Part shown: one piece after another, positions 17,739-48,517 of the stretch
Layout of the letters: each line of letters starts with the position of its first letter
Position numbering within the stretch: the stretch's first letter is position 1
DNA from: an uncultured Candidatus Saccharibacteria bacterium
Lineage (GTDB): Bacteria; Patescibacteriota; Doudnabacteria; UBA920
Direction: 5' to 3'
Assembly: GCA_964474825.1 (NCBI GenBank)
Contig: CAYYWQ010000001.1
Span: forward strand, 1,033,606-1,097,605
Length of the DNA stretch: 64,000 nucleotides
Program-made: the position numbers and the translations under genes
Notes under the pieces: model-generated
Databases searched by the model: none
The model's input: only the letters and a program-made list of their open reading frames with translations
Told to the model about the DNA's origin: nothing

Positions 17739-17767
17739 TTGACAATTAGATTGAAATAATGTATAAT
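17739..17767 (+). promoter_or_regulatory. Perfect sigma70 consensus promoter (TTGACA-N17-tgTATAAT)
   Basis: TTGACA is at 17739-17744, the spacer is exactly 17 nt, and TATAAT is at 17762-17767 preceded by TG. It points into the GC-rich gene at 17993. Confidence 0.55.
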
Positions 17768-17992
17768 TGCGGGTCATAATCCAAAATTGTGGGTTGTGCA
17801 TTTTTTGGTCTTTAAAAGTCTTTAGGAGGATTTTTTAAGGACCCTGAACCAGTCAGCGAAAGCTTCCGGTTTAGGGCAAGGAAGAAATTATATTCCCTGG
17901 GCAGGTTTGGCTATTATTTTAGTACCCAATCCCGCCCAGGGAACAGTCGCGAAGTTCCTTGGTTGTTGTTATCTCACGTTCAAAGGATCCAG

Positions 17993-19030
17993 ATGAAAAA
18001 TTTACTGAAGTTCGGTTTGCTGTGGCTCACGTTCACCACAGTCGTTTTTTCACAGAACAACATCCAGCCAGCCGGGGGCAGTGATTCCCAGCCGAAGGGC
18101 TGCAACGGGACGGTAATGTATGTTACGGAGATCCAATCGCAGACAGTGTATCAAGTCTGCATTGAGAAGAACGGGACGCGTTTCCGTTCTGTTGGGTACT
18201 CCGGCTATTCTTATCGGCTGGCCCTGACGAATGACGAACAGGTCGCCGCCTACGAAGCGACCGGACGATTGTTCCGTTACTGGACGGGCGTCTTCCAGGG
18301 ACAGCACTATCTCCCGGGGAACGGCCGCATTACCCAGCTCGAAGGCAACACCATCTCGTTCGAGTATCCCAATGCCGCACCCCGCACTTTCGCCCTGTAC
18401 TACGACGGCGAATTTTCCACGTTCCGGACAGGTCCTATTACCGGCTTTCCGAAGCCTACCCAGAATTGCCTCAGAGCTGTCGACAACGGCGGCTACTGGT
18501 GTCTGATGCCAGACCGCAAGCTGTTGTTTTGGCAGCGTGGGTTCGCCGGGTTCAACACGCTGGAAGGGGCCCGGGTGGTTGCTGAGGGGGTGGGAGGGTT
18601 GGTCTCATTGGAGTTGGGTTCCGTGCTCTACACGACCGTTAACGAACTCAATTGCGGCGTACCTAGCTCCAGGCCCCAGCCTTGCAGGTTGCAGAAGCCG
18701 GCCCAGATAATTCGGGCAAGCTTCAACTACGGCAGCTTGCAGTTCGACCGCAAAACTTTGGGGTCGGGGTATATAAACGACAACCCCTACTCCGATGGAC
18801 TTGCGGTGTCGGACGGCAACCTGTACTACATTGACTACGACCCCTCCATCGGATCCCGCATCATTCAGTTCGACCTGAAGACCAACCGGTCCAGGGTTGT
18901 TCTGGACGGCAACCTGTTCAGGCTTCGCCGTGATGATGGTACGCGCATTATGCCGGGGTTTGGCGCACTTGTTGTTGCGCCGAATCTCAATCCGGCGATG
19001 GCCGCGCCTGCCCTTCCGACCGTTCGGTAG
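17993..19030 (+). CDS. Secreted hypothetical protein, GC-rich, possibly beta-propeller-like
   Basis: It has the signal peptide MKNLLKFGLLWLTFTTVVFSQNN; the ORF-track start at 17963 is upstream. G+C is much higher than in its neighbours. The blade-like segment GNLYYIDYDPSIGSRIIQFDLKTNRSRVV is weak evidence only. Confidence 0.5.
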   Translation: MKNLLKFGLLWLTFTTVVFSQNNIQPAGGSDSQPKGCNGTVMYVTEIQSQTVYQVCIEKNGTRFRSVGYSGYSYRLALTNDEQVAAYEATGRLFRYWTGVFQGQHYLPGNGRITQLEGNTISFEYPNAAPRTFALYYDGEFSTFRTGPITGFPKPTQNCLRAVDNGGYWCLMPDRKLLFWQRGFAGFNTLEGARVVAEGVGGLVSLELGSVLYTTVNELNCGVPSSRPQPCRLQKPAQIIRASFNYGSLQFDRKTLGSGYINDNPYSDGLAVSDGNLYYIDYDPSIGSRIIQFDLKTNRSRVVLDGNLFRLRRDDGTRIMPGFGALVVAPNLNPAMAAPALPTVR

Positions 19031-24069: not shown

Positions 24070-25155
24070 ATGGAACATAGTGAAAAACCTCATAAACAAG
24101 CCAATGTGCAAAAAATGCATATTGGCTTAAACAAAAGGAGCTATATGCAAGAAGAAATAAAAAAAGGAGAAATTGTTATCTATAAAGCCCCAGAAGGCCC
24201 GGAATTACAGGTGCAGATGGATGGGGAGACAGTTTGGATGACTCAAGATCAGATTGCTAAGCTTTTTAGTACCCAAAGACCGGCAATCACAAAACATTTA
24301 AATAATATTTATAAATCCTCTGAGTTAAGCGAAAAAAGCACAAGTTCCATTTTGGAACATATGGGTGGCTTAGGGCAAAGATATAAGACCAAGTCTTACA
24401 ATCTTGATGCCATAATATCAGTGGGTTATAGGGTTAATTCTGCAAGAGCTACTCAATTTCGTATTTGGGCAACGCAGAGGTTGAAGGATTTTTTGCTTAA
24501 AGGTTATGCAATTAACCAGCACAGGCTGGACCAATTAAAGCAGGAACATAATAGCCAGGTAAAGGAACTGCAGTCTACGGTTAAGCTTTTTCAGAATGTA
24601 ATAGAGGCACAGAGGACTGAGGGGTATGAAAAGGAATTTTTGAATATTATTGTTGACTACGCTAACACGTGGACGGTCCTTCAGGAATACGACGAAGGCA
24701 AATTAGAAATTTCTAATGTTAGCAAAAAAACTTCTAAAGCTTTAGACCATAAAGAAATACAAAAATCCATTCAGCGGTTTAAAAAACGCTTAATGGACAA
24801 AAAACAGGCCAGCGGTTTGTTTGGCCAGGAAGTTGGCGGCAAGTTTGAAGCTGTGCTTGGCAGCATTTACCAAACTTACGGCGGTAAAGAATTGTATGCA
24901 AGCCTGGAAGAAAAGGCCGCGCACCTATTTTATTTTGGTATTAAGGACCACCCGTTCGTGGACGGTAACAAACGCATTGCCAGCTTACTATTTTTATTAT
25001 TTTTAATAGAAAATAACTATTTACTCAACAAAAAAGGCGAACGTAAGGTTAATGACACCGCGTTAGTTGCATTGGCTCTCCTTATTGCAGAGAGTAAGCC
25101 TCAGCAAAAAGATGTAATGGTAAAGTTGATAGTAAATCTTATAAACAAAAAATAG
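24070..25155 (+). CDS. Fic/Doc family protein with an N-terminal RhuM-like (virulence protein) domain
   Basis: The N-terminal half has the RhuM-family pattern IAKLFSTQRPAITKHLNNIY...AIISVGYRVNSARATQFRIWAT. The C-terminal half has the Fic/Doc core HPFVDGNKRIASLLF (HxFx(D/E)GNxR). Confidence 0.65.
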   Translation: MEHSEKPHKQANVQKMHIGLNKRSYMQEEIKKGEIVIYKAPEGPELQVQMDGETVWMTQDQIAKLFSTQRPAITKHLNNIYKSSELSEKSTSSILEHMGGLGQRYKTKSYNLDAIISVGYRVNSARATQFRIWATQRLKDFLLKGYAINQHRLDQLKQEHNSQVKELQSTVKLFQNVIEAQRTEGYEKEFLNIIVDYANTWTVLQEYDEGKLEISNVSKKTSKALDHKEIQKSIQRFKKRLMDKKQASGLFGQEVGGKFEAVLGSIYQTYGGKELYASLEEKAAHLFYFGIKDHPFVDGNKRIASLLFLLFLIENNYLLNKKGERKVNDTALVALALLIAESKPQQKDVMVKLIVNLINKK

Positions 25156-25224: not shown

Positions 25225-26940
25225 TTGAAACAAAAAATGTTCCTCTATAACTGGTACCAAAAATTTAAAGTAATTAAGCGTTTTAATTATATTTTGATAG
25301 TCCTGTTTCGGGCGGGGTTTTCGGCGTTCTTGTATAACGCGGGACTTAAGAAAAATATTCCAGTTGCTCAGAGGCTGGACAGGCACGGAAAAACCGTAGA
25401 TGAATCTATTTTGCCTGTAAAGCTTCGCCAAACTTTGGAAAAATTGGGTCCGGTATTTGTAAAGTTCGGGCAAATTTTAAGCACTCGCACGGACTTGTTG
25501 CCAAAGCCTTATATTGAAGAATTAACAAAGCTCCAGTCGCAAGTGCCGCCGTTTTCCTACAAAGAGGCGGAAAAAATTATCCAGAAGAATTTGGGCAAAC
25601 CGGCCGGGGAGATTTTTAAACATTTTGAAACAGTGCCTTTTGCTTCAGCCTCTTTGGGGCAAGTTTATAAAGCTGCTTTAACAACCGGGGAAACTGTGGC
25701 GGTTAAAGTCCAGCGGCCAAAAGCCAAGGAACAAATTAAGTTGGATATAGCGGTGCTTTTAATGCTGGCGCATTTTGTTGAAAAACATATACCCGGAGCA
25801 AAAGAACGCGGCATTGTAGGCGTGGTAAAAGAGTTCCAGCGCTGGACAGTGAATGAAATAGATTACCGCAAGGAAGCCACAAATTGCGAGGTTTTTGCCA
25901 ACTTTTTTAAGGACGACAAAAATGTTTACAGTCCAAAGGTGTATTGGGATTATTCCGGCGACAGTGTTTTGTGTTTAGAATACGTGGAAGGAATGTCCTT
26001 GGGAAATGTGGTAAAAGACCTGAATAATAAAAAGCTTAACAAAAAGCTAATTGCCCACCGCTTGGCTGACTCATTCATAAAGCAGTATTTTGATTACGGC
26101 TACTTCCACGCGGACCCGCACCCCGGAAATATTTTTGTGCTTCCGGGCAATAAGTTAATGTTTTTGGACTTTGGCATGGTGGGCCTTTTGGATAGCCAAC
26201 TTACTGCTTTGGCTTCCGGAGCTTTTTTGGCGCTGCTCCAGCGTGACGTGGAAAAAATTGTGGCAATACTTGTGCAAATTGAGCAGAACTATGACGAGCG
26301 CGCGCAGACTAAAGACGTAAGGGATTTGGTAAATGTTAATGGCCTGCGGAAAGAAATTACACAAATTGTACTTCAGTGGGCCAGCGTGGGCCAAGCGGGG
26401 CAGTTTACTAAATTGTTTTACCAAATAGTGGACGCGGCCATTCAAAACGGTATTGCCGTGCCTGTGGACTTAACTTTGTTTAGTAAATCCATAATGACAC
26501 TGGACGCCGTGGCTCATGACTTGGACCCGGGGCTAAAAATAGAAGAGTGGGAGAAGCCACTGGTTGAAAAAATTGTAATGGAGCGGTTTAAAGCGGAAAA
26601 AATAAAAGACCGTACTCAAGGCGCGGCGCTGGCCTTGGACGAGCTTCTTAAAAAATTGCCGGATTCCACGGCTACTATAGTTAACAATTTAGAACGCGGC
26701 AAGTTTGGTATGGAAATAAATACCGACCAACTTTTGGAATATGAAAAGCTTCTTAATGCCAATTCCCACTTTAGCACTTACGGGACATTTTTTGCGGCCA
26801 TACTTATTGCCGGCGCCTTAATTTACCAGAGCGGCACGCATCCGTTAGTTTGGGACATTGCCATACCTGGTTGGGGGCTTTATGTTGGCTTAGGGTTGAT
26901 TATATTATTTTTCTTCCGAGTCCGCAGCCGAAGCGTCTAG
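25225..26940 (+). CDS. ABC1/UbiB-family atypical kinase with a C-terminal TM region
   Basis: FETVPFASASLGQVYKAALTTGETVAVKVQRP is the ABC1 Gly-rich/Lys motif. It also has catalytic HADPHPGN and DFG-like LDFGMVG motifs, and two C-terminal TM helices. Confidence 0.8.
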   Translation: MKQKMFLYNWYQKFKVIKRFNYILIVLFRAGFSAFLYNAGLKKNIPVAQRLDRHGKTVDESILPVKLRQTLEKLGPVFVKFGQILSTRTDLLPKPYIEELTKLQSQVPPFSYKEAEKIIQKNLGKPAGEIFKHFETVPFASASLGQVYKAALTTGETVAVKVQRPKAKEQIKLDIAVLLMLAHFVEKHIPGAKERGIVGVVKEFQRWTVNEIDYRKEATNCEVFANFFKDDKNVYSPKVYWDYSGDSVLCLEYVEGMSLGNVVKDLNNKKLNKKLIAHRLADSFIKQYFDYGYFHADPHPGNIFVLPGNKLMFLDFGMVGLLDSQLTALASGAFLALLQRDVEKIVAILVQIEQNYDERAQTKDVRDLVNVNGLRKEITQIVLQWASVGQAGQFTKLFYQIVDAAIQNGIAVPVDLTLFSKSIMTLDAVAHDLDPGLKIEEWEKPLVEKIVMERFKAEKIKDRTQGAALALDELLKKLPDSTATIVNNLERGKFGMEINTDQLLEYEKLLNANSHFSTYGTFFAAILIAGALIYQSGTHPLVWDIAIPGWGLYVGLGLIILFFFRVRSRSV

Positions 26941-26989
26941 ACAAAAAAATAATTAGGGTTATAATTAAGGCAATTAACCAACTATTACC

Positions 26990-27235
26990 ATGGACAAAAG
27001 AGTAGAAAAAGCGTTTCGTATCAGTGATGGGCTAGCTAGTCTGGCTCATAAAAAAGTTACGGGTCTTGTTAAGGAGCTGCAAGGCGAAGGGGTGTTAACT
27101 GCCGCTGAAGGCCAAAAAGTTTTAAAGGGTCTGGGCAAAGTTAAAAAAGCTTTGTACGACGACGTTAGTGGCGAACTCAAGAAAGCTTTGAATAAGAAAG
27201 CTCCTGCTAAAAGTAAAGCTAAGAAACGAAGATAG
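26990..27235 (+). CDS. Small basic hypothetical protein
   Basis: An 81-aa Lys-rich protein followed by a clean terminator. There is no clear SD. Confidence 0.35.
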   Translation: MDKRVEKAFRISDGLASLAHKKVTGLVKELQGEGVLTAAEGQKVLKGLGKVKKALYDDVSGELKKALNKKAPAKSKAKKRR

Positions 27236-27237
27236 AA

Positions 27238-27270
27238 TAAAAAAACCACCCTTATCAGGGTGGTTTTTAA
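27238..27270. terminator. Bidirectional intrinsic terminator (accaccc-ttatc-agggtggt)
   Basis: A hairpin flanked by an A-run and a T-run, between convergent genes. Confidence 0.5.
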
Positions 27271-27272
27271 AT

Positions 27273-27536
27273 TTACTTAAGCTTGGCCAAAGCTTTGGCC
27301 ATTCTGGATTTTAAGCGGGAAGATTTGCCTTTCTTAATCACGTTTTTCTTGGCGGCTTTGTCTAAGCTGGACATGGCTTTTTTCATGGCTTCCATTGCAT
27401 CGCTCTTTTTGCCGGCAACAATAAGTTTGCGGACTTCCTTTACGGCTTCTTTGAAAACATCTTTAGTCTTTAAATTCCGCACATGGCGGCGAATGCTTTG
27501 TCTCATGGCCTTAGCGGCCGACTTGGTATTAGGCAT
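27273..27536 (-). CDS. rpsT: 30S ribosomal protein S20
   Basis: It has the N-terminus MPNTKSAAKAMRQSIRRHVRNLKTKDVFK and an all-helical basic 87-aa protein. Confidence 0.85.
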   Translation of the reverse strand: MPNTKSAAKAMRQSIRRHVRNLKTKDVFKEAVKEVRKLIVAGKKSDAMEAMKKAMSSLDKAAKKNVIKKGKSSRLKSRMAKALAKLK

Positions 27537-27704
27537 AAATAGTATTTAGTAGATAGTAATTAGTAGTTAGATTGTTGCGACACGCTTGTCCCGTAAAGTT
27601 TGCAGCAACTTTTACTGGGATAAAAAGAGTTTAGCAGAAAATAATAAAATAATCAAGGGTGGGTGGGAGGCGAAACGTTAGACGTCCGCCTCCACCGAAG
27701 CGAT

Positions 27705-28382
27705 CTACCACTCGAGCGAGACGCCGAACTTGGCGCCGAACTTGGAAGGGCTGTGCTCCTCTTCCTTGTGCTCGAAGGGCGATCTATAAACACTGTGAGT
27801 GACACCGGCCGTGAGCCGGTACTTTAACCTGTTGTGGAAATGGGCTTCCCAACGGACCGCGCCGACGGCCTCCGCCTCCCATTTTTCGTTGATTCCGAGG
27901 TAGCCGCCTTCAGCTACGGCAAAGAAGTTGTGGTACAGGTGCCGTGCGTATTCGGCTCCAGGATTGCCGATCTTTATAGAGCTTGATCGGAATTGGAGAT
28001 GGCGGTAGTTACCGGTCAGTTCGTGGAGTGGATGGTGGCTTTTGTCGAAGAATTCCACGTAGGCACCCGCTTCCACCATGGCGCCAACCAGTCCTTTCTC
28101 TGAGAACAAGGGACCTGCATTGGCCCGAATTCTCCATTCCCGGTCTTCTTTCCCTTCAGGGTTCTTCCAGGAATAACCTAGAGTTGCTGCCCCAAACTGC
28201 TGGGGATGGCCCTCGTCGGCTAAGCGGAGCCAGGTGGCTCCGACGGAAACGTTTCCAGTTAGCTTTTGGTGTGTGCTAACCAGTTGCGTTCCGCTCTGGT
28301 AGATGGCGTTGATCTGGTAATCCTCGGCAAACATCTCCGAAGACAAAATAAAAACTGCTACAGTCAGCAGTGTTAGTCTCAC
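27705..28382 (-). CDS. Predicted outer-membrane-type beta-barrel protein (OmpW/PagL-size), GC-rich
   Basis: It has the signal peptide MRLTLLTVAVFILSSEMFA, alternating hydrophobic beta-strand patterns, and a C-terminal beta-signal ...KFGVSLEW ending in an aromatic residue. Its G+C is well above that of its neighbours. Confidence 0.4.
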   Translation of the reverse strand: MRLTLLTVAVFILSSEMFAEDYQINAIYQSGTQLVSTHQKLTGNVSVGATWLRLADEGHPQQFGAATLGYSWKNPEGKEDREWRIRANAGPLFSEKGLVGAMVEAGAYVEFFDKSHHPLHELTGNYRHLQFRSSSIKIGNPGAEYARHLYHNFFAVAEGGYLGINEKWEAEAVGAVRWEAHFHNRLKYRLTAGVTHSVYRSPFEHKEEEHSPSKFGAKFGVSLEW

Positions 28383-28442
28383 TCGCGTCTCTCCTTAGAG
28401 TTTTTTCGGTATCGTATAATACCACCAAAATATTAAATAAAA

Positions 28443-28475
28443 TACGCACTTGTGTCAAGACATAGGGGGGTTGAC
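28443..28475. promoter_or_regulatory. Perfect 11-bp-arm palindrome ACTTGTGTCAA-N12-TTGACACAAGT upstream of the beta-barrel gene (candidate operator)
   Basis: The inverted repeat is seen directly in the sequence. Each arm contains a TTGACA hexamer. It lies between the gene start at 28382 and the terminator of the upstream SBP gene. Confidence 0.4.
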
Positions 28476-28476
28476 A

Positions 28477-28501
28477 CAAGTAGAAAAAAGCCCTCAATGA
28501 G
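28477..28501 (-). terminator. Intrinsic terminator of the SBP gene (aagccctca-atg-agggctt + T-run on the - strand)
   Basis: The hairpin lies immediately after the stop of 28512-29609(-) and is followed by ttttttct on the - strand. Confidence 0.5.
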
Positions 28502-28511
28502 GGCTTTTAAG

Positions 28512-29609
28512 TTATTTTACCAATTCCGGTTTCCCGTTTGTGATTTTAAATATTTTTTCTACTTTTTCCGAATACTGTTTTCCGTCCATGTTAATTGGAG
28601 AGCCTGTACCTTGTATTTTTACCTGTGTTAGAGCGTCTCTAAGAGAAATGCTTTTATTTAAAGATATTCTATGAGCTTCCCCTATGGTTTTAATGCCATC
28701 GTATCCAAAGGTGACAAATTCTGCCGCCGACGCTTCTGTTCCGTACTTGGCTTTATATTTAATTAGCAAATTAGTAGCGTTGTCCGCAAAAATATTTGTT
28801 TGGTAAACATTTTCCGCAGCTTTCCCGGCCGCATCAATTTCGTCTTGAATTAAGCCGTCCGCGCTTAAAAGTTGTCCGTTAAATTTAAGTTCTTTGGCTT
28901 GGGTAATAATGCGGCTCCCTCCGGGAGGATTTACCGGAAAATAAATACCTTGAGCTCCGGCGTTTTTTGCCTTGGTAATTAAAGTCCTGAAGTCTTGTTC
29001 TGTAACTATAACTTTTTCATTCATTACCACCACGCCTCCCAAAGCTTGGAATTTTTTTATAAATGCCGCGGAAATCAATTCTGACCAGGCGTCGATTTGT
29101 TCTATTACTGCCACCTTTTTTACTCCAAGTTTGTTAAAACCATACTCAGCCATTTTTTCACCAGTGGCCTCTGTGTTAAAGCCAATGGAAAATATATAGT
29201 CTCCCGCTGTCTTCATGTAGTCATTGCTGTCCCAGGTTCCTAATATTGGTATTTTAGCTTTATTAAATATTGGCGCTACCGGCTTAATTTCTTCTATGGC
29301 CATGGTAAACACCGCGTCTACTTTGTTTCGTGATATCAGCTTATTGGCGGCATTTACAGAGTCGGTTGCTTTAAACTGGTCGTCTTCTACAATGTACTCG
29401 ATTTTTTTCCCAGCTGTATTTTCTTCTTCCACGGCCAATAAAGCACCCCGGTTTACTTCTTCCGCTATAGAGCTGTAGCCTCCTGTCATTGGCAAAATAG
29501 CTCCAATTTTCAGGGTAGCGGTGGTTGCGCTTTGTTTGCTATTATTTATTTTTATGACCACGAAGGCCAAAATCGCTAATACCGCAATGACTAAAATTTT
29601 GTTTCTCAT
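28512..29609 (-). CDS. Periplasmic-binding-protein family 6 substrate-binding protein (LivK-like), second copy
   Basis: It has an N-terminal anchor and then IGAILPMTGGYSSIAEEVNRGALLAVEEEN. Its architecture is the same as the gene at 1112-2314. Confidence 0.7.
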   Translation of the reverse strand: MRNKILVIAVLAILAFVVIKINNSKQSATTATLKIGAILPMTGGYSSIAEEVNRGALLAVEEENTAGKKIEYIVEDDQFKATDSVNAANKLISRNKVDAVFTMAIEEIKPVAPIFNKAKIPILGTWDSNDYMKTAGDYIFSIGFNTEATGEKMAEYGFNKLGVKKVAVIEQIDAWSELISAAFIKKFQALGGVVVMNEKVIVTEQDFRTLITKAKNAGAQGIYFPVNPPGGSRIITQAKELKFNGQLLSADGLIQDEIDAAGKAAENVYQTNIFADNATNLLIKYKAKYGTEASAAEFVTFGYDGIKTIGEAHRISLNKSISLRDALTQVKIQGTGSPINMDGKQYSEKVEKIFKITNGKPELVK

Positions 29610-29674
29610 TTTGTTTTTATGAAGCTTTTTAACTTATGTAATCTAATTTTACTTAATTTAAGCCAAATTAGCAA

Positions 29675-31765
29675 TTATTTCTTTCCTTGCAAATGTTTTA
29701 TCTTTTTTATTTCTTCTATTCTGTCGCGGAGGCGGGCAGCGAGTTCAAATTCCAGGTTTTGGGCGGCTAAGTCCATTTGTTCTTCTAGCTCGCTTACGTA
29801 GAATTTTAATTCTTCCGGAGTCATTTTGGAGGAATCTACCTGGCGTTCTTTTTCGTCTTCTATTTCTTTATGACTACCGGCAAGGCGTGAGTCGGCTATG
29901 GCTTTTTGAATACTTTGGGGGGTTATGCCGTGTTTGGTGTTGTAAATTTCCTGAAGTTTTCTGCGCCTATTTGTCTCATCTATCGCTCGTTTCATTGAGC
30001 CGGTAATTTTGTCCGCGTACATTACCACATGGCCTTTAAGGTGCCTGGCGGCGCGGCCCATCATTTGCATAAAGAAAGTCTCGCTGCGTAAAAAACCTTC
30101 TTTGTCGGCATCTAAAATTGCCACCAAAGAAACTTCTGGTAAATCTAATCCTTCCCTAAGCAGGTTAATGCCAACTAGTACATCGTAAATACCTAGGCGT
30201 AAATCGCGTAATATTTCCAAGCGTTCAAATGTGTCTACATCAGAATGCAAATACTGAACTTTAACCCCGTCTTCTTTTAAGTATTCGGTAAGTTCCTCAG
30301 CCATGCGTTTGGTTAGGGTTGCCACTAACACGCGCTGATGTTGCCCAACTCTTTCTTTAATTTGCTCTATTAAATCATCCACCTGGTTTTTAATGGGCTT
30401 TATTTCTATGCTTGGGTCTAAAAGGCCTGTGGGTCGAATAATTTGTTCTACAATTGTGGGAGGTTTTAACTCCTTTAGTTTTGGCCGCGCGTCTATAATG
30501 CTTTGTTCTTCTTCGGTGCGCTTGGATTTAGAAATAAATTTAATGTCTTTTTGGGTCAGGCTTCTTTCTATTTCAAATTCCGCTGGGGTGGCCGAAACAA
30601 ACACGGCTTGGGTAATTTTTTTCTCAAATTCTGTAAATTTTAATGGGCGATTGTCTAAAGCACTGGGCAGTCTAAAGCCGTAATCTACTAAGGTTGTTTT
30701 TCTGCTTTTATCTCCTTCGTACATAGCGCCAATTTGGGGGATGCTCTGGTGGGACTCGTCTATAAATAGCAGGAAGTCGTCCGGGAAATAATCTATTAGC
30801 GTAGAAGGTGGATCGCCGGCATTTCGGCCGTCTAAGTGCCTGGAATAGTTTTCTATACCCGCAACAAAGCCGGTGTTGGTGAGCATTTCCAAGTCAAAGT
30901 TGGTTCTTTGTTCCAGTCTCTGGGCTTCTAAAAGCTTCCCTTCTTTTTTAAATTCTTTGAGTCTTTCAGCAAGCTCCTCGCGTACTTTTTCCATGGCTTC
31001 TTTTAATTGCTCCTCAGGAGCAACAAAATGCTTGGCAGGGAAAATTGTGAATTCTTCTAAGGTTTCCAGTTTATGTCCGCTGACTGCGTCCAGGCGTTCT
31101 ATTTTTTCCAACTCGTCGCCATTAAAATCCATGCGGATTATTGTGTCTTCGGAAGACAGGATAATTTCTAACACATCTCCTTTGGCTCGGAAGCTTCCGC
31201 GTTCAAGTTCTAGGTCGTTCCTATGGAACTGCAAATCTGTAAGCCTTCTTAAAAGCTTGTCGCGTTTAAAGCTTTCTCCCCTTTTTATTTTAAGGGAAAG
31301 CTCCAAATAGTTGGCCGGATTGCCTAAACCGTAAATGCAGGAAACACTGGCTACAATCAACACATCTTTTCTAGAAAGTAGCGACTGGGTAGCAGCGTTA
31401 CGAAGCCTGTCTATCTCTTCGTTAATTTGCGTGTCTTTCTCTATGTATGTGTCTGTGCGGGGAATATAGGCTTCCGGCTGGTAGTAGTCGTAGTAGGAAA
31501 CAAAATAGTGAATGGCATTGTCCGGGAAAAATTCCTGGAATTCCGCGGCCAGTTGCGCGGCTAAAGTTTTGTTGTGGCTAATGATTAAAGTAGGTTTTTG
31601 AAAATGCTGAACCACATTGGCCATAGTAAAAGTCTTGCCGCTTCCGGTAACGCCAAGTAAAGTTTGGTATCTGCGTCCGGCTTCTATAGACTTAATTAAG
31701 CCCGCAATTGCAGCGGGTTGGTCGCCAGCTGGTTTAAATTTAGATTGTAATTTAAATTTACTCAT
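29675..31765 (-). CDS. uvrB: Excinuclease ABC subunit B
   Basis: It has the Walker [10 protein letters not shown], helicase motifs, a beta-hairpin region, and the C-terminal UVR domain [22 protein letters not shown]. Confidence 0.95.
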
Positions 31766-38288: not shown

Positions 38289-40601
38289 ATGAATACAGAA
38301 TTTAATCCCATTGAGAAATATGGGCCAACTACTTTACCGGAGTCAAAATCAGAGCATGAACTGCGGGAATCAAAGGCAGAAGTTTTGGAATTAGGGAAAA
38401 GATTTATTCAAGGACGGGATTGGAAAGCACTGGAAGATTTAGTTAGATCTTTGCCGGACAATGATTTTCTTGTCACTCAAACTACTTTGTTACAGGAGTT
38501 AAATGATGGTTTATTTGATGTTCAACTGAAGCCTGGACCTGCCAATAGATATTTTGAAGAAGGGGACGGTTGGGAAACTTTACGCTGCGCCACAGAAATT
38601 ATAAGGAAAATGGGAAATAATCCCAGCTCATCCAAATATTTGCATAAGGTTATGGAGATGGACAGGATTCCTAAGGTTGTTTTAAAAGAAGGGCAAGCTG
38701 CCATTACTAATGATATAAATGCAGGAGCTGATTTAGATATTGATGTTCGTTGGTTTTATTATAGGGCATTGACAGAGGCTTTTTTAAAATTTCCAGACGA
38801 TCGAGCCCTGCTCGCGGTAAAGCAAATTTTAAATAAGATTGACCAGCAGGTACTTGAAAATACCAGACATTATTACTACCCTGAGGGAAAAGATATAACA
38901 GGGAGTTTTGAAGAAACGCCACAGGAGTTGTTTGACTATCAGTTCAAGGCTGCGGAATCTAATATGCCCAGTGACTTAATTGCAGGCATATCCGCCGGTG
39001 ATATGGCAGTTGGCACTAAGTCTTTTATAATAAAAAAATTAGGGGGAGCCAAACAGCCGGAATCACTTCCTATGTTTTTAGAAGTGATAAAGCTCGAAGG
39101 CTCAGATGCCCCAATATATTTTCATCCTATATTGGAGGCTCTTAGGCAATTGGACCAAAATTTGGTGGCGGACAAGCTCTTAAATTTGGTTAAGAGCGGA
39201 AACCCATTTGAAAAAAGAAGCGCATTATGGCTGCTATATAGGTTGGAAATTGGACAAGTTGGGGTTTCTGAAGAAGGCGTACATTATTTGCATAAAGTTT
39301 ATGACGTGGGAAACTATAATAATCCTAATTATTATGTACAACGCTTAACTTCCGGTGGGCAGGTTGGTATTTTTTCCCAAGAGGGAAAATTTGAGAAATA
39401 TTTTAATTTGGAGGGATTGGGCAGTGAAGAACAGCGCATTAGAGCTAAATTGTTGGACATTACCTACGCTACTTTGTTTGGGCATCACGCTAAGGAGAAG
39501 CCGGAAGAACGCAAACAAAGAACAAAGTTATTAGAGGAGTTTCAGTTAAAATATTTTGAATTTTTACAACACGATTTTTTCAATGATCTTCCAGTAAAGT
39601 TTTCTGATTTAACTTTTCCGGAACAAGGGCAGTTTTTAAAATTTTATTCTGACTCTGAGGAGTCAGAAAGAGCGAGACTGAAAGATTATTGTAAGAAGTT
39701 TGGGCTAACTGGGTTTCGTTCATTAATGTCTTTGGATTATGATGGGGGTGTCGCCGCCAAGCTTTTAGACATGGCCGAAAGTTTGCCTCAGTCACGAATG
39801 CAGATGATTTTAGATAAATATGTGGCAATAGTTTCCGCAGCTGATACCGCGGAAATGGCACTTTGGGAAAACTTACCTCAATCCGCAAATGCTTCTCCAG
39901 ATTTAAAAGAACGGGTAAGAGAATTTATTATGGAAAAAGGTAGTAGATTTTTAAGGCATTTAGGGCTGGACGAATCTGAGGCATTTTCACACAAAGACAC
40001 AATCATGTATTTAAGTGGAATTCGTACAGAAGTAATGATTTATGCCGCTTTATTTAAAGAACTTTCTAAAATTAACAAACTTTCTATAACTGACATTAAA
40101 GACGCTAGGTTTGACATCGTCCCAGCTAAATTACTTTCTGAAGATGATAAAAAACAGATGTTGGAAATTTTTGCAAATAATAGAGACGAGAGCTATCCTT
40201 TAAAGTTGAGAGAAGCGACGTTAAGAAGTTTTGAGCAAACTTTACAAGCAGAAGGGCCGGTTTTTAGAGTGCTAAAGTACAAAGGAAGTATTGTGTCGTT
40301 TTTCCACGCTCAACCACAAGGAGAGGATGCTATTTATGTTGGATCTTTGAATTTGAGTCCTGACGCCCAAGACAGCTCTATTGCAGTTAGTATGGTAGTT
40401 GCGGCTTTGGAACAGGCCGGGACAGAAAAAAATATAACAGCTAAGGTTTGGTCTAAAAATGAAAAACTTTATAAATTTTATAAGCGCTATCTACATTTTC
40501 AAGATGATGGGGTAGAAGAGAATTATGAAGGAACGGGGGAAAATTATTACAAGCTAAAAAAACCAAAGCAGGAAGAATCTACTTTTGCAGTAGCGGCTTA
40601 A
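38289..40601 (+). CDS. Large hypothetical protein
   Basis: A long ORF with coding-like composition. The likely start is MNTEFNPIEK at 38289; the track start at 38232 overlaps the divergent ABC gene. I recognised no motif. Confidence 0.5.
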   Translation: MNTEFNPIEKYGPTTLPESKSEHELRESKAEVLELGKRFIQGRDWKALEDLVRSLPDNDFLVTQTTLLQELNDGLFDVQLKPGPANRYFEEGDGWETLRCATEIIRKMGNNPSSSKYLHKVMEMDRIPKVVLKEGQAAITNDINAGADLDIDVRWFYYRALTEAFLKFPDDRALLAVKQILNKIDQQVLENTRHYYYPEGKDITGSFEETPQELFDYQFKAAESNMPSDLIAGISAGDMAVGTKSFIIKKLGGAKQPESLPMFLEVIKLEGSDAPIYFHPILEALRQLDQNLVADKLLNLVKSGNPFEKRSALWLLYRLEIGQVGVSEEGVHYLHKVYDVGNYNNPNYYVQRLTSGGQVGIFSQEGKFEKYFNLEGLGSEEQRIRAKLLDITYATLFGHHAKEKPEERKQRTKLLEEFQLKYFEFLQHDFFNDLPVKFSDLTFPEQGQFLKFYSDSEESERARLKDYCKKFGLTGFRSLMSLDYDGGVAAKLLDMAESLPQSRMQMILDKYVAIVSAADTAEMALWENLPQSANASPDLKERVREFIMEKGSRFLRHLGLDESEAFSHKDTIMYLSGIRTEVMIYAALFKELSKINKLSITDIKDARFDIVPAKLLSEDDKKQMLEIFANNRDESYPLKLREATLRSFEQTLQAEGPVFRVLKYKGSIVSFFHAQPQGEDAIYVGSLNLSPDAQDSSIAVSMVVAALEQAGTEKNITAKVWSKNEKLYKFYKRYLHFQDDGVEENYEGTGENYYKLKKPKQEESTFAVAA

Positions 40602-41380
40602 ACAGCTTTTGCATTTTGCCACAGTGCTTCAAATACAGTTTTGTGCATTTTGTAAATTGCAGGGTGTTCTATGGTCATACTGACAATTTTTCCGGCTTCC
40701 ATGCTAATGTAAGAAATCTTGCCGTCGTAAATGTACATTATGGTGGAAAAGGCCGCGGGCGCCGGTATAACGCGAACCTGGGTAACGTTGGGGTTAAAAG
40801 TTTTAGCGTGCTGCCGCACAAAAGCGGAGTCCACCATAATAATTTTTTTCTTTATGCCTTTAGTTGTCCGCGCTTCCGTAAAGTTTTTGTTAAGTTCAGG
40901 AAATTGTTTATTTAGCGCCTCGCTGTCTATGTAAGAATAAATTTCCGTAGCTGAAGTTAAAGAATCCTCCACGACCTGTTGTGCTCCGTCCAATCCTTCG
41001 AAAAATTTAATTGTTGGTTTGGTTGCCGCGAGTTGATAAAGACTTCTAAGTCCCGGTAAGGTTTTGCCCAATTCTTCCTCCGCCGTTGTAATGGCGGATT
41101 TTTGTTTAGCTAAAAGAAGTTCCAGGTGCTCTGGATGTTTGGCTATAAATTTGGTGGTGGTTTTTGGCAAGTCTTGTTTTTCTACTAATCCTTTGGCTAC
41201 TAAGCTGTCCAGGTGGTAGTAAGCGTTGCCGCGCTTTAACTTGGTGTGGAATAAAATTGGCTTCATGCTTTGCGGACCCAAGTTTAAAAGCAGCTCGTAG
41301 ATTTGGGCTTCGTTTTTGTTGAGGCCTAGTTTTTCCAGGAGGGGGATATAAGGGGATTGTTGTATTTGATTATTATCCAT
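40598..41380 (-). CDS. TrmB-family transcriptional regulator (N-terminal wHTH)
   Basis: The N-terminus KNEAQIYELLLNLGPQSMKPILFHTKLKRGNAYYHLDSLVAKGLVEK matches the TrmB winged-helix pattern. Confidence 0.55.
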   Translation of the reverse strand: MDNNQIQQSPYIPLLEKLGLNKNEAQIYELLLNLGPQSMKPILFHTKLKRGNAYYHLDSLVAKGLVEKQDLPKTTTKFIAKHPEHLELLLAKQKSAITTAEEELGKTLPGLRSLYQLAATKPTIKFFEGLDGAQQVVEDSLTSATEIYSYIDSEALNKQFPELNKNFTEARTTKGIKKKIIMVDSAFVRQHAKTFNPNVTQVRVIPAPAAFSTIMYIYDGKISYISMEAGKIVSMTIEHPAIYKMHKTVFEALWQNAKAV

Positions 41381-41536: not shown

Positions 41537-43240
41537 TAACATAAAAACAGCAAAAAGCACCTTTTACAATATATATGACTTTCTGAGGAGAGAGTCGGCA
41601 ATAGGCGCCGAAAAGCCTGGTAAATTAAGTCTTTTTGTCGCAATAAGCGGCTAATTGGTTATCTCTCCCAAAGAAATAGCTTGTTAGCCGCTTTTTTGGT
41701 AGAAGGGGATTTGGAGAAGAATACACCACATATTTCTTCTTCAAGTCTCTCTCTATAAAGAGGAGAGAGCCTGCGCTTAAAAAGAGCAGGTAAAAAATTC
41801 TTTTAAAACCATTTGTCTTGCTCAAAGGTTGGAGTAAGGATTAGAAACCCTAAAACAACCCCGCTCCATGCTCAGCATGGAGAAAGTAGACTTTAGCTAG
41901 AGTAGGTAAGTTACAGTGTTAAGCGCTTCGGCTTACAGGAAGCCGCGGCCCTGACCGCTTACCTATGGACCTAGCAATGAGTGCACCCTTCATAACCCAA
42001 AAGGTTGTGAAGGGAACAGTCATTGTTATAAGTAGAATATAGAATCTAGAAGATAGAATTTAGGAAATAGGTGCGTGCGGAAATTTTTATCGCCTGTGGT
42101 AAATATTTCTGCCCTCGCTACTACAGGAGTAGTGAGGTAGCACCTTAAAATTTTCAAATAAGATTTTAATTTTTGCTTAAGTTCGTCTTAAGCGTATTAG
42201 ATTTTGTCGGCAGCGTTGAGCAGCAAAGCTATGTCTTTGCTTTTTTAAGCTGCCGACAAGCCATGCATCTTTTTGGCGCATGGCAGCAGAAAAGGAGGCG
42301 GATATCGTGGAATACCCGCCGGGCAAGCAATAAAATTGCCGGGGTACAGCGTGAACCCTATCCCAAATTCGCTCGACAACTTCTGTGGCCTTTGCAGAAG
42401 ATCGTATTGATAAGGCAACCGGCAAGCAATTCTTGCCAAAGGAGGGTGGAAATGAAAACTCCACCTGGAAATAGGGGTAACTGGAAGAGGCCCAAAAAAC
42501 CAGCAACCGGAAACCTAGGGTATTAGTTGTCCCTAAGTGGAAGGTAAAAACCCGTCGCCGACAACTAAATGTGCTGCAGGAGTAAGGTAAGACTAGTAGT
42601 TATATTAGTAGGCTTGGATAAGGGCGTATGATCCTGGACTGAGTTAAAAGTATAATGAAGTGCTTATCTGAAACTGCACACATGGCAAGGAAGAGTCCTC
42701 CCTCCAGGAGGTGAGCGAGCTTGGGATAGTATCTCCGGGCCGCCTGCCTGGAGAAACTGCTCTATACCCCGAGGATCCGATGCTTCATGATTTGGGGTGA
42801 ACTTCCAGACGCCCAGGCACTTTGTTTTAGGAGGTGTGTTATGTTGAAACTTCCGTTTTAGCCCGGTCTCTGGATCCGGGCGAAGCCTGCCGCAAGGTAG
42901 GAAAACCAGCAACCAACCTATAGCAACAGATAGCTATGGGAAGGTTTACCCTAGGCCGTGTCTGTATGTTTTGTTAAGTAGTTTACGGAAAGGCGGATGA
43001 TCTGGAACGTAAACGAAAGGCGAGGCATGGTCGTGTGGTCCCGTGCGGCAACGGGACAAGGAAGAAAGTCTCTCCGCGTCTGTGGAGAGGATGGGCGAGC
43101 TCGGGACACAATTCCGCGGCTCGGCCTGTCCGAGTCCGCGGGAGAATGCCCAGAATCTTTCAGACGCCCGAGCGTTTTTGTTGTAAAAATCAAAACCGCC
43201 CGCGGCGCCGGATGATGCGCCAAGGGCAAAGGAGCTTGTC
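41537..43240 (+). other. About 1.7-kb non-coding, hairpin-dense leader / candidate large structured RNA preceding the Ubl-conjugation operon
   Basis: There is no ORF with credible composition. I saw at least ten perfect 5-10-bp hairpins by eye. Two 26-nt direct repeats lie at 42803-42828 and 43158-43183. G+C rises sharply from about 41830 onward. Confidence 0.3.
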
Positions 43241-44308
43241 ATGGTTGAGGTAAAATGGGGTGCAAATGCGGATCGTCCGTATTGGTTTCCCTTTAGTGAT
43301 CAGATAAAAGAATGGCTCTCTAATAACGAGAGCCTGCCAGACACTTTGTTGTACCTGCGCCCAACGTATAAGGAGGGGCAGCAGGAGCAAGTGGCTGGAC
43401 GTTTGGTTGTTGTGCTGGGTCGTGATGATTGGCCGAGCACAAAAGGGACCCTTGAGGCGGAAGGGAGCTTGAAGATTGACTTCATTCCGCAGGGTAATTT
43501 TCTTCGGATTTGGGGGCTACCAAATTGTCCCGACCGGAGAGACGGCGAGGAGGTGGTGAGGATTCTGAGTCGTCTGTTGCCCGAGGTTGCAAAGACTGAC
43601 CCACAAAAAAAACTTGCAATAATGGCAATGGTCTCTGAGGCCTATGTTAAAGAGTGCTCGAAGAGATTTGAAAAAACCCTTGAAGGAACCCGCAAGGCGA
43701 TCAAAGACGGTAACGCAGCCGTGGCCAAGCTCCAAGTGGAGCTCGTGAAAAAGATTCGCGAGACCCGAGGGGCTGAGCGCAAGCTTGAGCAAATGGAGTC
43801 CTCGCGCGAAGCGCAGACCGAAGGATACGCGCAGGAGTTTAATAAACTCCTGCAGGTCCCTAAAGTCCGTAGGGTGGAGGCAAAGGAGGGCAAAGTGATA
43901 GTTTACACCGACGTTCTTTTTTGTACGGATCCCCGGACGGGGATATGTCACGAGATTGGCGCGTTCAGGATTGAACTAGTTGCGGATATGGGGATCCCGT
44001 ACTGGTTTAACTTAACCCGTTCCGTTGACGGGTACAACAATAGAATGCAGGCACCACATATTTACTCGAACGGGCAGGCCTGTCTGGGTAACGCCGCGGA
44101 AATCTTCCCGGAACTCATAGGTAACTATGAGTTTGCGGCCGCAGCCATGGTGGCTATCCAGTTCGTGGAGTCGGTGAACACCGACGACACGGCTGGAAAA
44201 CACATTGACAAGTGGCCGGTGGCGAAGGAGCAACCGGTCAAAATCGCAACCGCAACAAAGGTGGCAAATTTAGTGCCGCCACAACCGTCTTGGAGGAGCA
44301 ATGGCTGA
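43241..44308 (+). CDS. E2-like (UBC-fold) ubiquitin-conjugating enzyme homolog with a roughly 200-aa N-terminal coiled-coil extension
   Basis: The C-terminal segment IPYWFNLTRSVDGYNNRMQAPHIYSNGQACLGNAAEIFPEL parallels the E2 core YPF.PP...F.T.IyHPNI..nG.ICLdiL, with the catalytic Cys in the xCL position. An SD (aaggag) precedes the ATG. Its stop overlaps the next gene. Confidence 0.5.
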   Translation: MVEVKWGANADRPYWFPFSDQIKEWLSNNESLPDTLLYLRPTYKEGQQEQVAGRLVVVLGRDDWPSTKGTLEAEGSLKIDFIPQGNFLRIWGLPNCPDRRDGEEVVRILSRLLPEVAKTDPQKKLAIMAMVSEAYVKECSKRFEKTLEGTRKAIKDGNAAVAKLQVELVKKIRETRGAERKLEQMESSREAQTEGYAQEFNKLLQVPKVRRVEAKEGKVIVYTDVLFCTDPRTGICHEIGAFRIELVADMGIPYWFNLTRSVDGYNNRMQAPHIYSNGQACLGNAAEIFPELIGNYEFAAAAMVAIQFVESVNTDDTAGKHIDKWPVAKEQPVKIATATKVANLVPPQPSWRSNG

Positions 44309-45035
44309 AAAGTTAAGGCGTGAGTGGGGCGGCGCCAAGAAGTTTGCGCCTCATGAATTTTCCTCGCGAGTAGAACTCGCGGGAGGCTTGCCTCGGGTTC
44401 TCGTGACCCGCGATGCGTACGAAGATATGTACTGCATCGTTGACGCGGTCGACAAAGAGGTAGGTTGGCTTGGCGCTGTCCAGCGTCTCGGAAATGATTT
44501 TCTGATCACGGAGGTTTTCCTCTTTGACCAGGAGACGCACGCGACAACGTGTGAGATCACGCCCGACGGCATGGCGGAGTTCGCCATGCAGCTCATGTCG
44601 TCCCGACCGGACGGCATGGAAGTAGCCAACTCAATCCGCTTCTGGGGGCACAGTCACGTGAATATGGGGACCAGCCCTTCGGGGCAGGACGAGACCCAAT
44701 TGCGTGAGCTGGCGGCTTCGTGTGGTGATTTTTTCGTTCGGGGCATTTTGAATAAGTCCGGACGGATGGAGTGGACCATCGTACTTGCTTCTGTTGGCGT
44801 CGTAATCCGCGACGCCGCGTGGGAGCTTTACGAACCCGCCGCCGATGCCCGCCGCCGACAGCGGTGGGAGGCGGAAATCGCAACTAAAGTCCGGGAAAAG
44901 ACCTACCCGCAACCGACCTTCGGGTCGGAACGTCGGTGGTCATCAACGATTATTCCCGGACCGGTCGCCTCCGCGGTCCCGCTCTCCAAGCGGGCACAGC
45001 GGCGGCTAGAGAAAGCGGGCAAAAATGGCCATTGA
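44301..45035 (+). CDS. JAB/JAMM (MPN+) metalloprotease-family protein, a putative Ubl-processing/deconjugating peptidase
   Basis: It has a complete JAMM motif: E (LITEVF) ... HSHVNMGTSPSGQD, which is HxHx7Sx2D. It overlaps both neighbours, indicating translational coupling. Confidence 0.65.
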   Translation: MAEKLRREWGGAKKFAPHEFSSRVELAGGLPRVLVTRDAYEDMYCIVDAVDKEVGWLGAVQRLGNDFLITEVFLFDQETHATTCEITPDGMAEFAMQLMSSRPDGMEVANSIRFWGHSHVNMGTSPSGQDETQLRELAASCGDFFVRGILNKSGRMEWTIVLASVGVVIRDAAWELYEPAADARRRQRWEAEIATKVREKTYPQPTFGSERRWSSTIIPGPVASAVPLSKRAQRRLEKAGKNGH

Positions 45036-45732: not shown

Positions 45733-45733
45733 T

Positions 45734-46051
45734 ATGGGCTGGCTGGCGGGCCGTAACGAGATAATTCAACTTCGTCTCCAACCACCAAAGCCAACGGCCT
45801 ATGTTAATTTTGGTTCAGGTATTGAGTTCACTGCCGACTTCATTGTTGGTATGACACTTCGCAACCTGATCCAGTTTTTGCAGCAGAACTGTAGCTATCG
45901 TTCTATTCACGGCGATGAAATCCCGTGGTTGCATGACTTCCTGCGAACCGGCGACCTTAAGAATTTCCCGGCGGATTTGGACTATGTTATCCAGCCGGGT
46001 GACAAAATTGTTCTGGACTTAACGAAGTTGTTGAGTCCGGTAAGTAAGTAA
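45734..46051 (+). CDS. Small beta-grasp (ubiquitin-like/ThiS-like) protein without a terminal Gly-Gly
   Basis: It has the C-terminal beta-grasp-like DYVIQPGDKIVLDL pattern. Its start is 1 nt after the E1 stop. It ends ...LLSPVSK, with no GG. Confidence 0.4.
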   Translation: MGWLAGRNEIIQLRLQPPKPTAYVNFGSGIEFTADFIVGMTLRNLIQFLQQNCSYRSIHGDEIPWLHDFLRTGDLKNFPADLDYVIQPGDKIVLDLTKLLSPVSK

Positions 46052-46183
46052 ATGTAGTATAGAGGCCGGCATTGCCGCCCGTCGAATGTAGACGTTAAAA
46101 AATATGGGTCCCAAAGGGATTAAATTTAAAACCCATCCGCAGTTTGTAGAGCATTGGCAAACAGCGAAGACAGGAGTAAAACA

Positions 46184-47622: not shown

Positions 47623-47699
47623 GACATGGTCTTTGCCCTTCCTAAAAAATAAAAAGCCCGGTTGGTGGACCGGTTAAATAAAACCGCTAAGCACTCAAA

Positions 47700-48500: not shown

Positions 48501-48517
48501 ACGAAGCATTCAGTTTT

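Follow-up and report, generated by a model that had tools for sequence, protein, structure and literature searches.

Among described bacterial operators, the CIRCE/HrcA site has 9-nt arms and a 9-nt spacer, the NikR site has the form 6-N16-6, and type 1 CsoR/RcnR sites carry a G/C tract between AT-rich inverted repeats. The mRNAs of abundant envelope proteins, as in E. coli ompA and S-layer genes, are stabilized by a 5′ stem-loop. Bacteria of the Candidate Phyla Radiation (CPR, Patescibacteria) account for a large part of bacterial diversity and, to our knowledge, their surface construction and host contact are largely unknown. In this work, a 64,000-nt stretch of contig CAYYWQ010000001.1 (the window) from a CPR bacterium of the lineage Candidatus Doudnabacteria was analyzed around a 225-codon gene (27705–28382, minus strand; hereafter the target), which lies downstream of uvrB and just upstream of rpsT and is preceded by a perfect palindrome that overlaps the −35 box of its promoter.

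On balance, the target and its control region are probably a single-gene, self-contained expression unit of Doudnabacteria, which belongs to a lineage-specific, fast-evolving class with a palindromic promoter and is not a recent import from a diderm. The class is best described as Doudnabacteria-specific and previously undescribed, consisting of hypervariable GC-rich genes for exported β proteins that are driven by a conserved palindromic promoter in a uvrB-rpsT hotspot.

The palindrome is like the CIRCE, NikR and CsoR types of operator in that it is a perfect repeat whose arms are separated by roughly one helical turn, lies over a core promoter element, is kept at orthologous promoters of different species and has a conserved G/C tract in its spacer, and it is unlike the CIRCE/HrcA, NikR and CsoR/RcnR sites in that its sequence is unrelated and a single site, instead of a regulon, was present in the DNA examined. 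As in mRNAs stabilized by a 5′ stem-loop, the predicted target transcript has a hairpin near its 5′ end, together with a near-consensus promoter, a strong Shine-Dalgarno (SD) sequence and a strong terminator; most relatives differ from ompA-type leaders in that a U-run follows the hairpin, as in an intrinsic terminator or attenuator, whereas the target has an A-run. The locus is like flexible genomic islands in its fixed anchors (uvrB and rpsT), variable presence, atypical composition and fast-diverging exported proteins, with gap contents that are unrelated among close relatives. It is unlike them in that it consists of one open reading frame (ORF) of ~0.8 kb, that promoter and leader are kept while the coding part changes, and that mobility genes are absent. 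The locus offers a testable handle: a small gene, probably highly expressed and tightly regulated, for a predicted surface protein with termini like those of outer-membrane proteins (OMPs). Across Doudnabacteria the control region of the gene is kept, whereas the protein has diverged so far as to be unrecognizable.

Palindrome, promoter and leader of the target gene

The features of the unit and its borders, in order of window position, are:

27273–27536, minus strand: rpsT (ribosomal protein S20), the downstream anchor, assigned by PF01649 on a Logan contig
27662–27696, minus strand: GC-rich terminator hairpin of the target gene (fold −27.2 kcal/mol, z = −2.8)
27705–28382, minus strand: target coding sequence, 225 amino acids (aa), GTG start; the product is a sequence orphan, predicted to be exported and all-β, His/Glu-rich and without Cys
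27708–27740, minus strand: C-terminal amphipathic strand FGAKFGVSLEW with terminal Trp, β-signal-like, from the translation and the β-moment table
28326–28382, minus strand: predicted signal peptide, residues 1–19 MRLTLLTVAVFILSSEMFA, cleavage before EDYQ
28391–28396, minus strand: SD sequence AAGGAG, 8 nt ahead of the GTG start, read from the sequence
28407–28424, minus strand: 5′-proximal hairpin of the GGUAUUAUACGAUACC type in the leader (predicted length ~45 nt) of the predicted mRNA
28430–28435, minus strand: −10 hexamer TAATAT from the promoter scan, with TAAAAT or similar at the aligned position in relatives
28448–28481, no strand: perfect inverted repeat ACTTGTGTCAA-N12-TTGACACAAGT, putative operator, with conserved core GTCAA-N11-12-TTGACA
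28453–28458, minus strand: −35 hexamer TTGACA within the gene-proximal arm (promoter scan, 10 of 12 matches, 17-nt spacer)
28486–28508, minus strand: intrinsic terminator that ends the preceding periplasmic-binding-protein gene and borders the unit on its left side (10-bp stem, 3-nt loop, T-run)

The arms of the palindrome (28448–28458 and 28471–28481) are 11 nt each, 100% complementary and separated by 12 nt, with no T-run after the repeat. A perfect palindrome with 11-bp arms upstream of the gene had been reported in the preliminary description of this DNA, and the site is real; the coordinates given there, 28443–28475, were 5–6 nt too low, and the feature end at 28480 cut off the final base of the palindrome (28481). 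There are 42 inverted repeats of 11 nt or longer in the window, most of which are terminators, and an 11-nt perfect inverted repeat by itself is barely beyond chance there. The core TGTCAA-N10-14-TTGACA, in contrast, occurs once in 64 kb against 0.02 copies expected, and this single copy, the coincidence with the −35 box and the conservation in relatives together indicate that the palindrome is non-random. The promoter is of the sigma-70 type and near consensus (TTGACA-17-TAATAT), and the dyad symmetry lies over a core promoter element, with the −35 TTGACA inside the proximal arm.

The same architecture was found ~95–150 nt upstream of the ORF preceding rpsT in 12 Doudnabacteria relatives (loci L009, L012, L015, L017, L018, L019, L020, L022, L023, L025, L026 and L029). 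It consists of GTCAA-N11-12-TTGACA, ~17 nt, a TAAAAT-like −10 box, a 5′-proximal hairpin and an AGGAG-type SD sequence; the target has the core at its −35 box, the −10 box, the leader hairpin and a strong SD sequence. When the promoters of the target and eleven relatives (all but L018) were aligned, the GTCAA and TTGACA columns were invariant in 12 of 12 sequences, at a mean column identity of 45%. In the 12 relatives the core motif was present once per ~22-kb locus, always at the pre-rpsT ORF. Because it is kept at the same locus in relatives, the palindrome is, judged by this conservation, a locus-specific cis-element of Doudnabacteria. Core matches in L006, L035 and L064 were set aside as chance, since they had no promoter context, as were 18 metagenome matches to TGTCAAGNCATAGN4-6TTGACA, because promoter and ORF context was missing from all of them.

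The spacer GACATAGGGGG, with a G/C tract beside one arm (G6 in the target, G3–G5 in relatives), is conserved, although it was found in either orientation with respect to the gene. Conservation of the spacer suggests contacts at the center of the palindrome as well. The two orientations would be the pattern expected of occasional hairpin-loop flips between perfect arms; such flips are known as minute inversions in chloroplast DNA.

Both orientations of GACATAGGGGG, as if the arms paired and the loop flipped, could also speak for a palindrome that is structural or mutational in nature, either a hairpin or cruciform insulator against read-through or a cassette-exchange site in an integron-like hotspot. 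Transcribed as RNA, the repeat would give an 11-bp stem. The same promoter architecture precedes no fewer than four or five protein families that are unrelated to one another, the ORF content of the gap is highly variable and the foreign-looking codon usage suits a separate pool. We regard this alternative as improbable. The arm coincides exactly with a consensus −35 box, which points to a transcriptional role, and the repeat has no T-run after it in the target and most relatives and hence is not a terminator; that function was rejected for the target palindrome also because there is a canonical terminator 5 nt upstream of it. For an exchange site, no recombinase or integrase was found nearby in the window or in the inspected loci, and the 3′ ends carry ordinary terminators and no attC-like repeats. 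The 12-nt spacer is too short for inversion by a recombinase, and rare hairpin-templated flips explain the two orientations better.

Since the promoter would be intrinsically strong and the repeat covers its −35 box, the palindrome is best read as a repressor site, and a putative repressor operator is its most likely role. The earlier comparison with a transcription-factor site is in keeping with the overlap with the −35 box and the conservation across genomes; the search for further copies that was suggested there gave one site per relative locus and a single site in the window, and no regulon. The only TrmB-family gene of the window (40598–41380) is 12 kb from the palindrome. Genes of this family are frequent in the uvrB-rpsT gaps of relatives, missing from the target gap and not strictly tied to the class, and the TrmB protein of relatives was rejected as the regulator because it has no counterpart in the target gap.

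In the proposed working of the unit, the promoter would be intrinsically strong, and a dimeric or tetrameric repressor on the palindrome would block sigma at the −35 box until its departure switches the gene on. The 5′ hairpin and the GC-rich body would stabilize the mRNA, and in relatives with a U-run the leader hairpin may attenuate transcription instead. With the strong SD sequence and the Sec signal peptide, a mature protein of ~205 aa would then reach the cell surface in abundance, where it would be an extremely diverged local member of a lineage-specific, fast-evolving class of surface proteins.

A 5′-proximal hairpin was found in 10 of the 12 class leaders, that of the target among them, and is followed by a U-rich tract in nine relatives. 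In most relatives (L017, L015, L020, L023, L025, L026 and L009) hairpin and U-run lie within ~35 nt of the predicted transcription start, for example at 16265–16300 of L025, and the stems differ by genome (AAAUCCGCU/AGCGGAUUU, ACCGCC/GGCGGU and AACAGCC/GGCUGUU). From its sequence, the combination of hairpin and U-run in the relatives looks like a terminator/attenuator or a 5′ stabilizer. No match to RNA families of the Rfam type was found in the target region, and no tRNA, rRNA or Rfam family reached the gathering threshold in window positions 1–64000, despite the dnaA origin region inside.

Occupants of the uvrB-rpsT gap and their composition

In most of the Doudnabacteria loci fetched, rpsT lies downstream of uvrB, with the S20 gene on the same strand except in four distant ones. 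The gap between them ranges from ~130 bp (L004, L006 and L007) to 9.6 kb (L002), and its gene content differs by genome; among the closest UvrB relatives, L004, L006 and L007 have no gene there and L002, L003 and L005 have other genes. In many relatives the pre-rpsT ORF encodes ~190–250 aa with a signal peptide and has a G+C of 0.49–0.63 versus 0.38–0.53 for the locus. The target lies just upstream of rpsT, on the same strand and downstream of uvrB, and matches the class as a signal-peptide ORF in the range of ~210–245 aa with a G+C well above that of the genome. By position and size it is the local occupant of a conserved slot.

Across L002–L054 the gap is a gene-content hotspot that often opens with an oppositely oriented gene for a TrmB-like regulator and variously contains ABC transporter genes, PEP-utilising-enzyme-like ORFs or GC-rich exported ORFs, one or two of which stand in tandem in L012, L020, L029 and L031. 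Exported ORFs of ~200 aa with canonical OMP-like ends but without the palindromic promoter were seen near the locus in L044 (12532–13167, ending ...FRVSRTFSF) and L049 (7927–8529, minus strand, ending ...GLVGVRYKF). A RhuM/Fic-domain gene lies near rpsT in the window (24070–25155), and a homologue (51–74% identity) is found just past rpsT in most Doudnabacteria relatives; this gene thus belongs to the conserved surroundings of the hotspot. The target locus is ~23 kb from dnaA, and the gene upstream of it (28512–29609) matched Peripla_BP_6. Past the target terminator, CCCTTG, a T-rich stretch and TGCTAAACT make up the rpsT promoter region, which is also kept in relatives without the module; the T-rich tract at 27640–27661 is the right edge of the GC-rich module.

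G+C is 0.53–0.57 over 27625–28370 versus 0.33–0.44 in the flanks. An independent Logan assembly of SRR14271365 (3,582 nt) is identical to window positions 26187–29768, which include both GC boundaries; the GC-rich segment is thus no product of chimeric assembly. In the target, the three codon positions have a G+C of 0.59/0.42/0.63, and third-position G+C (GC3) is 0.38–0.48 in core genes of the window. Codon choices of the target also depart from those of core genes (ATC, 0.57 versus 0.09; CTC+CTG, 0.64 versus 0.19; CGG, 0.33 versus 0.05). Translational selection for high GC3 was rejected, as the target and rpsT differ in their codon choices and high-expression bias therefore does not explain those of the target. 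The excess extends to the class, whose ORFs have a G+C of 0.49–0.63 in loci of 0.38–0.50 and a GC3 that is 0.09–0.27 higher than in uvrB of the respective genome in 10 of 11 members (L009 is the exception). Because the entire positional class has it, the high G+C is not the mark of a one-off import. Candidate causes are GC-biased gene conversion at a recombination hotspot, a CPR-internal gene pool and a GC-rich, nuclease-resistant mRNA.

Core genes of the window, for example rpoBC (50551–57994) and uvrB (29675–31765), strongly avoid NTC codons (fraction within the codon family: ATC, 0.09; GTC, 0.09; CTC, 0.06; TTC, 0.24) and use GAC, CAC, AAC and GCC freely; this avoidance of NTC is missing in the GC-rich islands.

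Searches with the target protein, in a word-indexed database of 5.8e9 clusters and exhaustively with phmmer over 1.84e9 representative proteins, returned only the self-match. No match was found in Pfam (E ≤ 10), NCBIfam, PHROGs or PADLOC or among GTDB genome contigs, PDB sequences gave one non-significant, unrelated match, and tblastn gave a chance match only against plasmids and none against viral contigs. A recent transfer from a diderm lineage that has been sampled would be difficult to reconcile with this result.

In the preliminary description, the G+C of the gene was called foreign-looking, OMP-type proteins were held to be unexpected in a monoderm CPR-like organism, and either a diderm organism or a recent transfer from a diderm, possibly the host, was proposed. 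The CPR-like organism was borne out: UvrB matches, in a scan of one genome per GTDB species, were 66–87% identical and came nearly all from Doudnabacteria/Patescibacteria metagenome-assembled genomes, which places the bacterium in Candidatus Doudnabacteria. The G+C excess was likewise present, and its value as a mark of import was lost once the whole class proved GC-rich. The transfer itself found no homologue to draw on and faces same-locus counterparts in 12 relatives.

Stated in full, that alternative holds that the target encodes a classical outer-membrane (OM) barrel, dependent on the β-barrel assembly machinery (BAM), that was recently acquired from a GC-richer diderm, perhaps the host, or that the organism is itself diderm. 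The C-terminus does fit the β-signal and a signal peptide is present, the sharp GC island is limited to the ORF and its terminator, the foreign codon usage is akin to that of other GC islands in the window, and the uvrB-rpsT spot gains and loses genes, since the closest UvrB relatives are empty or differently filled. Atypical composition and codon usage are what a recent genomic island would have, but a donor homologue is missing from the 1.84e9 representatives, the 5.8e9 clusters, plasmids and viral contigs alike. The AT-rich promoter, palindrome and leader are common to 12 Doudnabacteria at the same locus, the ORFs of relatives are equally GC-rich irrespective of genome GC, no integrase, other mobility gene or repeat was seen flanking the module, and no OMP profile matched. 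We consider this account very unlikely. The evidence does not support a recent import from a diderm; the gene class is better seen as vertically maintained and rapidly diverging.

In alignable pairs of class ORFs, divergence was highest at third, lower at first and lowest at second codon positions, a coding signature, and the class occupants are therefore real genes. These ORFs are 27–59% identical where alignable, and UvrB of the same genome pairs is 77–91% identical; going by these sequences, the class evolves very fast. The target might still be no gene at all, its frame having arisen by chance in a GC-rich structured non-coding RNA or in junk, as it is a sequence orphan, GC-rich DNA is poor in stops and several long ORFs in the window's other GC islands are spurious. 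This is extremely unlikely, as a chance ORF of 225 codons with this composition has a probability of ~1e-4 (our own estimate from base frequencies), promoter, SD sequence and start are well placed ahead of a signal peptide, G+C follows the coding pattern GC1>GC2<GC3, counterparts have coding-type substitutions and no Rfam family matched.

Class ORFs split into several clusters that were unconnected by phmmer all-against-all or by hhalign, and the link from the target to the class was absent in the phmmer comparison. A weak link came from the profile of one cluster, cluster B, which scored the target at E = 6.8e-4 in a set of 36 sequences. When a class profile was run over 2,641 ORFs, the target ranked 15th and the class members of L009 and L026 ranked 8th and 10th. 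A profile search of the large database with a mixed alignment returned only 7 proteins. Several features recur across the class: the cleavage context A↓ED(Y/H) (the arrow marks the cleavage site) is common to the target and relatives (A↓EDHS, A↓QEDHS and A↓EEHES), an (N/E)P-x-AE-x-x-RH motif stands at the same relative position in the target and class members, and His/Glu patches lie at the mature N-terminus and ahead of the last strands. Cluster B has two conserved Cys. A terminal F/W was found in 6 of 11 complete class members versus 5.9% of background ORFs (p = 1.5e-5). Membership of the target in the class is established by position and regulatory DNA; homology of its protein to those of class members is likely but unproven, going by motifs and profile scores.

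Fold of the product and the cell envelope

The 225-aa product begins MRLTLLTVAVFILSSEMFA↓EDYQ and ends ...SKFGAKFGVSLEW. Its Sec signal peptide was called by eye, from the hydrophobic core and the cleavage context, and has no lipobox. The last eight residues, KFGVSLEW, match the β-signal (polar-x-G-x-x-hydrophobic-x-aromatic), with hydrophobic residues at positions 1, 3, 5, 7 and 9 counted from the C-terminus, and the β-moment table gave strong two-residue amphipathic periodicity in ~10 segments. The signal peptide, the amphipathic β periodicity and the C-terminal β-signal FGAKFGVSLEW had all been named in the preliminary description and were all recovered here. The mature protein of ~205 aa is rich in His (6.3%) and Glu (9.7%) and poor in Asp (1.9%), a composition unlike that of classical OMPs.

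Structure predictions gave low-confidence models. The single-sequence AlphaFold2 (AF2) model of the target, with a predicted local distance difference test score (pLDDT) of 35, was nearly all β, with ~10 strands and one helix, and the model of class member P0002, made from a 6-row multiple sequence alignment (pLDDT 31), had β structure in the first two-thirds only. The only helix in both models sits at the (N/E)P-x-AE-x-x-RH motif. A Foldseek search of PDB with the low-confidence target model gave template modeling scores of <0.2, which are meaningless.

With ~10 strands, both termini would lie on one side, an arrangement that a barrel would allow. The target is like the small 8–10-stranded OM barrels (OmpX/Ail, OmpW, the OmpA N-domain and PagP/PagL; MBB clan) in its Sec signal, ~205-aa mature length, ~10 amphipathic strands, lack of Cys and C-terminal strand with a terminal aromatic residue. 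It is unlike them in having no sequence or profile similarity, a His/Glu-rich, Asp-poor composition and only low-confidence models, and its host differs from theirs in belonging to a phylum reported to have neither an OM nor BAM. A small antiparallel β-barrel of ~10 strands with an OMP-like closing strand is, on periodicity and end-signals, the most likely fold, nearly an even call that leans slightly to the doubtful side. A membrane barrel is a reasonable reading but an unproven one, because these end-signals and periodicity can be mimicked by soluble β proteins.

The same class and regulation could instead serve a soluble or wall-associated secreted protein, such as a β-sandwich or lipocalin-like barrel acting in metal or ligand binding or as an adhesin. 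The aromatic C-terminus would then simply be the last core strand, and soluble β proteins also give two-residue periodicity; the composition, with its recurrent His/Glu clusters, is unlike that of classical OMPs, the two conserved Cys of cluster B suggest a disulfide, CPR bacteria are reported to have no OM (PMC12102498) and no membrane-barrel family matched. This version is possible but unlikely, since a terminal F/W is tenfold enriched in the class, the last eight residues of the target fit the β-signal exactly, similar-size Doudnabacteria ORFs end ...GVRYKF or ...GLGVAYTF, and no soluble family matched either. The recurrent His/Glu patches hint at a possible role in metal binding or host contact.

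The window genes include dnaA-dnaN-recF, yidC and genes for a PilB-type ATPase, FemAB, VanW and a Mur ligase, and no recognizable gene for OM biogenesis was seen among them (64 kb of a 1.21-Mb genome). FemAB, VanW and PilB without visible OM genes in the window would fit a CPR-type wall. An OM has been reported missing in CPR (PMC12102498; 10.1101/335083), and in a passage of bioRxiv 10.1101/335083 that cites Luef et al., CPR bacteria are described as appearing to have no Gram-negative envelope and no PilQ secretin.

Several observations weigh against reading the locus as an operator-controlled member of a vertically maintained class of barrel-type surface proteins. A comparison of the target with the class in hhalign gave E = 0.077 and a probability of <1%, which leaves protein homology statistically unestablished, MAFFT alignments of the target with class members were unstable, shared composition could inflate weak profile scores, and an antisense ORF likewise ranked high with the class profile. 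The codon usage of the target departs from that of core genes and rpsT and resembles that of the remaining GC-rich islands of the window; such usage is typical of foreign DNA, and vertical descent gives no explanation for it. Neither a regulon nor a cognate regulator was found, with one site in the window, one per relative locus and no adjacent regulator gene; at a single site per ~20–60 kb examined and with no regulator, it is therefore architecture and conservation that carry the putative operator. OMP family profiles did not match the target (Pfam at E ≤ 10, NCBIfam) or class members (Pfam), and with pLDDT of 35 and 31 both structure predictions are unusable. Finally, CPR are reported to have neither an OM nor BAM-type machinery (PMC12102498; 10.1101/335083), which would leave a classical OMP without a destination.

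A bolder proposal, in which Doudnabacteria, and perhaps CPR more widely by way of the family in the next section (cluster A), encode hypervariable OMP-type barrels with a true β-signal although they are held to be monoderm and without BAM, is decidedly improbable. If it were true, CPR-type cells would have an unrecognized OM-like layer, or else the barrels would be exported into the OM of a diderm host by the host's BAM and serve the epibiont as a nutrient conduit or attachment point. In the case of insertion into the host, diversifying selection by the host would explain the extreme divergence, and frequent allele exchange with GC-biased conversion would explain the persistent G+C excess. A barrel would either challenge the view that CPR are monoderm or point to a host-directed porin; if the product is no barrel, the locus would still be a hypervariable surface-protein hotspot that has a palindromic promoter motif of a new kind and a G+C anomaly throughout the lineage.

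Cluster A and other GC-rich genes

Cluster A comprises exported hypothetical proteins of ~195 aa (P0008–P0080) with 73 database members, and the only organisms named among them are Patescibacteria, including Yanofskybacteria. Its genes were found in the uvrB-rpsT hotspot of L005 (13247–13834), L014 (13129–13722) and L031 (13019–13606) as well as L011, L020 and L027. They are like the target in occupying the same hotspot, in being GC-rich relative to the genome, in having a signal peptide and an aromatic C-terminus (G-x-G-x-x-Y-T-F) and in having the −35 box inside an inverted repeat, which has its own motif, TAGTCA-N7-8-TGACTA. They are unlike it in that the promoter motif is different and no sequence relation is detectable, and cluster A is well conserved (31–69% identity to the first sequence) whereas the target class is hypervariable. 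The cluster A promoter motif does not occur in the 64-kb window, and the proteins had no Pfam or PDB match. They end ...GLGVAYTF, which, like the ...GLVGVRYKF of the L049 ORF, is a canonical OMP-like strand, and the cluster A alignment is deep enough for structure prediction.

In the window, a GC-rich block of orphan genes (42700–50200, G+C 0.52–0.61) ends ~0.4 kb before rpoB, and the TrmB-family gene at 40598–41380 lies ~1.3 kb ahead of it. Within the block, 43241–44308 matched no family, 44301–45035 has a JAMM-like HSH...S..D motif by eye, and 45025–45732 is ThiF/E1-like, with weak PADLOC E1-E2 matches and 27% identity to the PRTRC-system ThiF of Alteromonas plasmids. A PRTRC origin of this island was rejected, as an identity of only 27% indicates no recent donor. 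Long ORFs on the opposite strand of the block (46019–47305 and 48915–50171) resemble artefacts.

A second isolated GC-rich gene (17740–19030, G+C 0.57, GC3 0.71) encodes an orphan of ~345 aa with a signal peptide. Its consensus promoter, TTGACA-N17-TATAAT at ~17740–17768, is followed by an unusually long leader of ~230 nt, which contains a 24-nt imperfect inverted repeat at 17893–17943.

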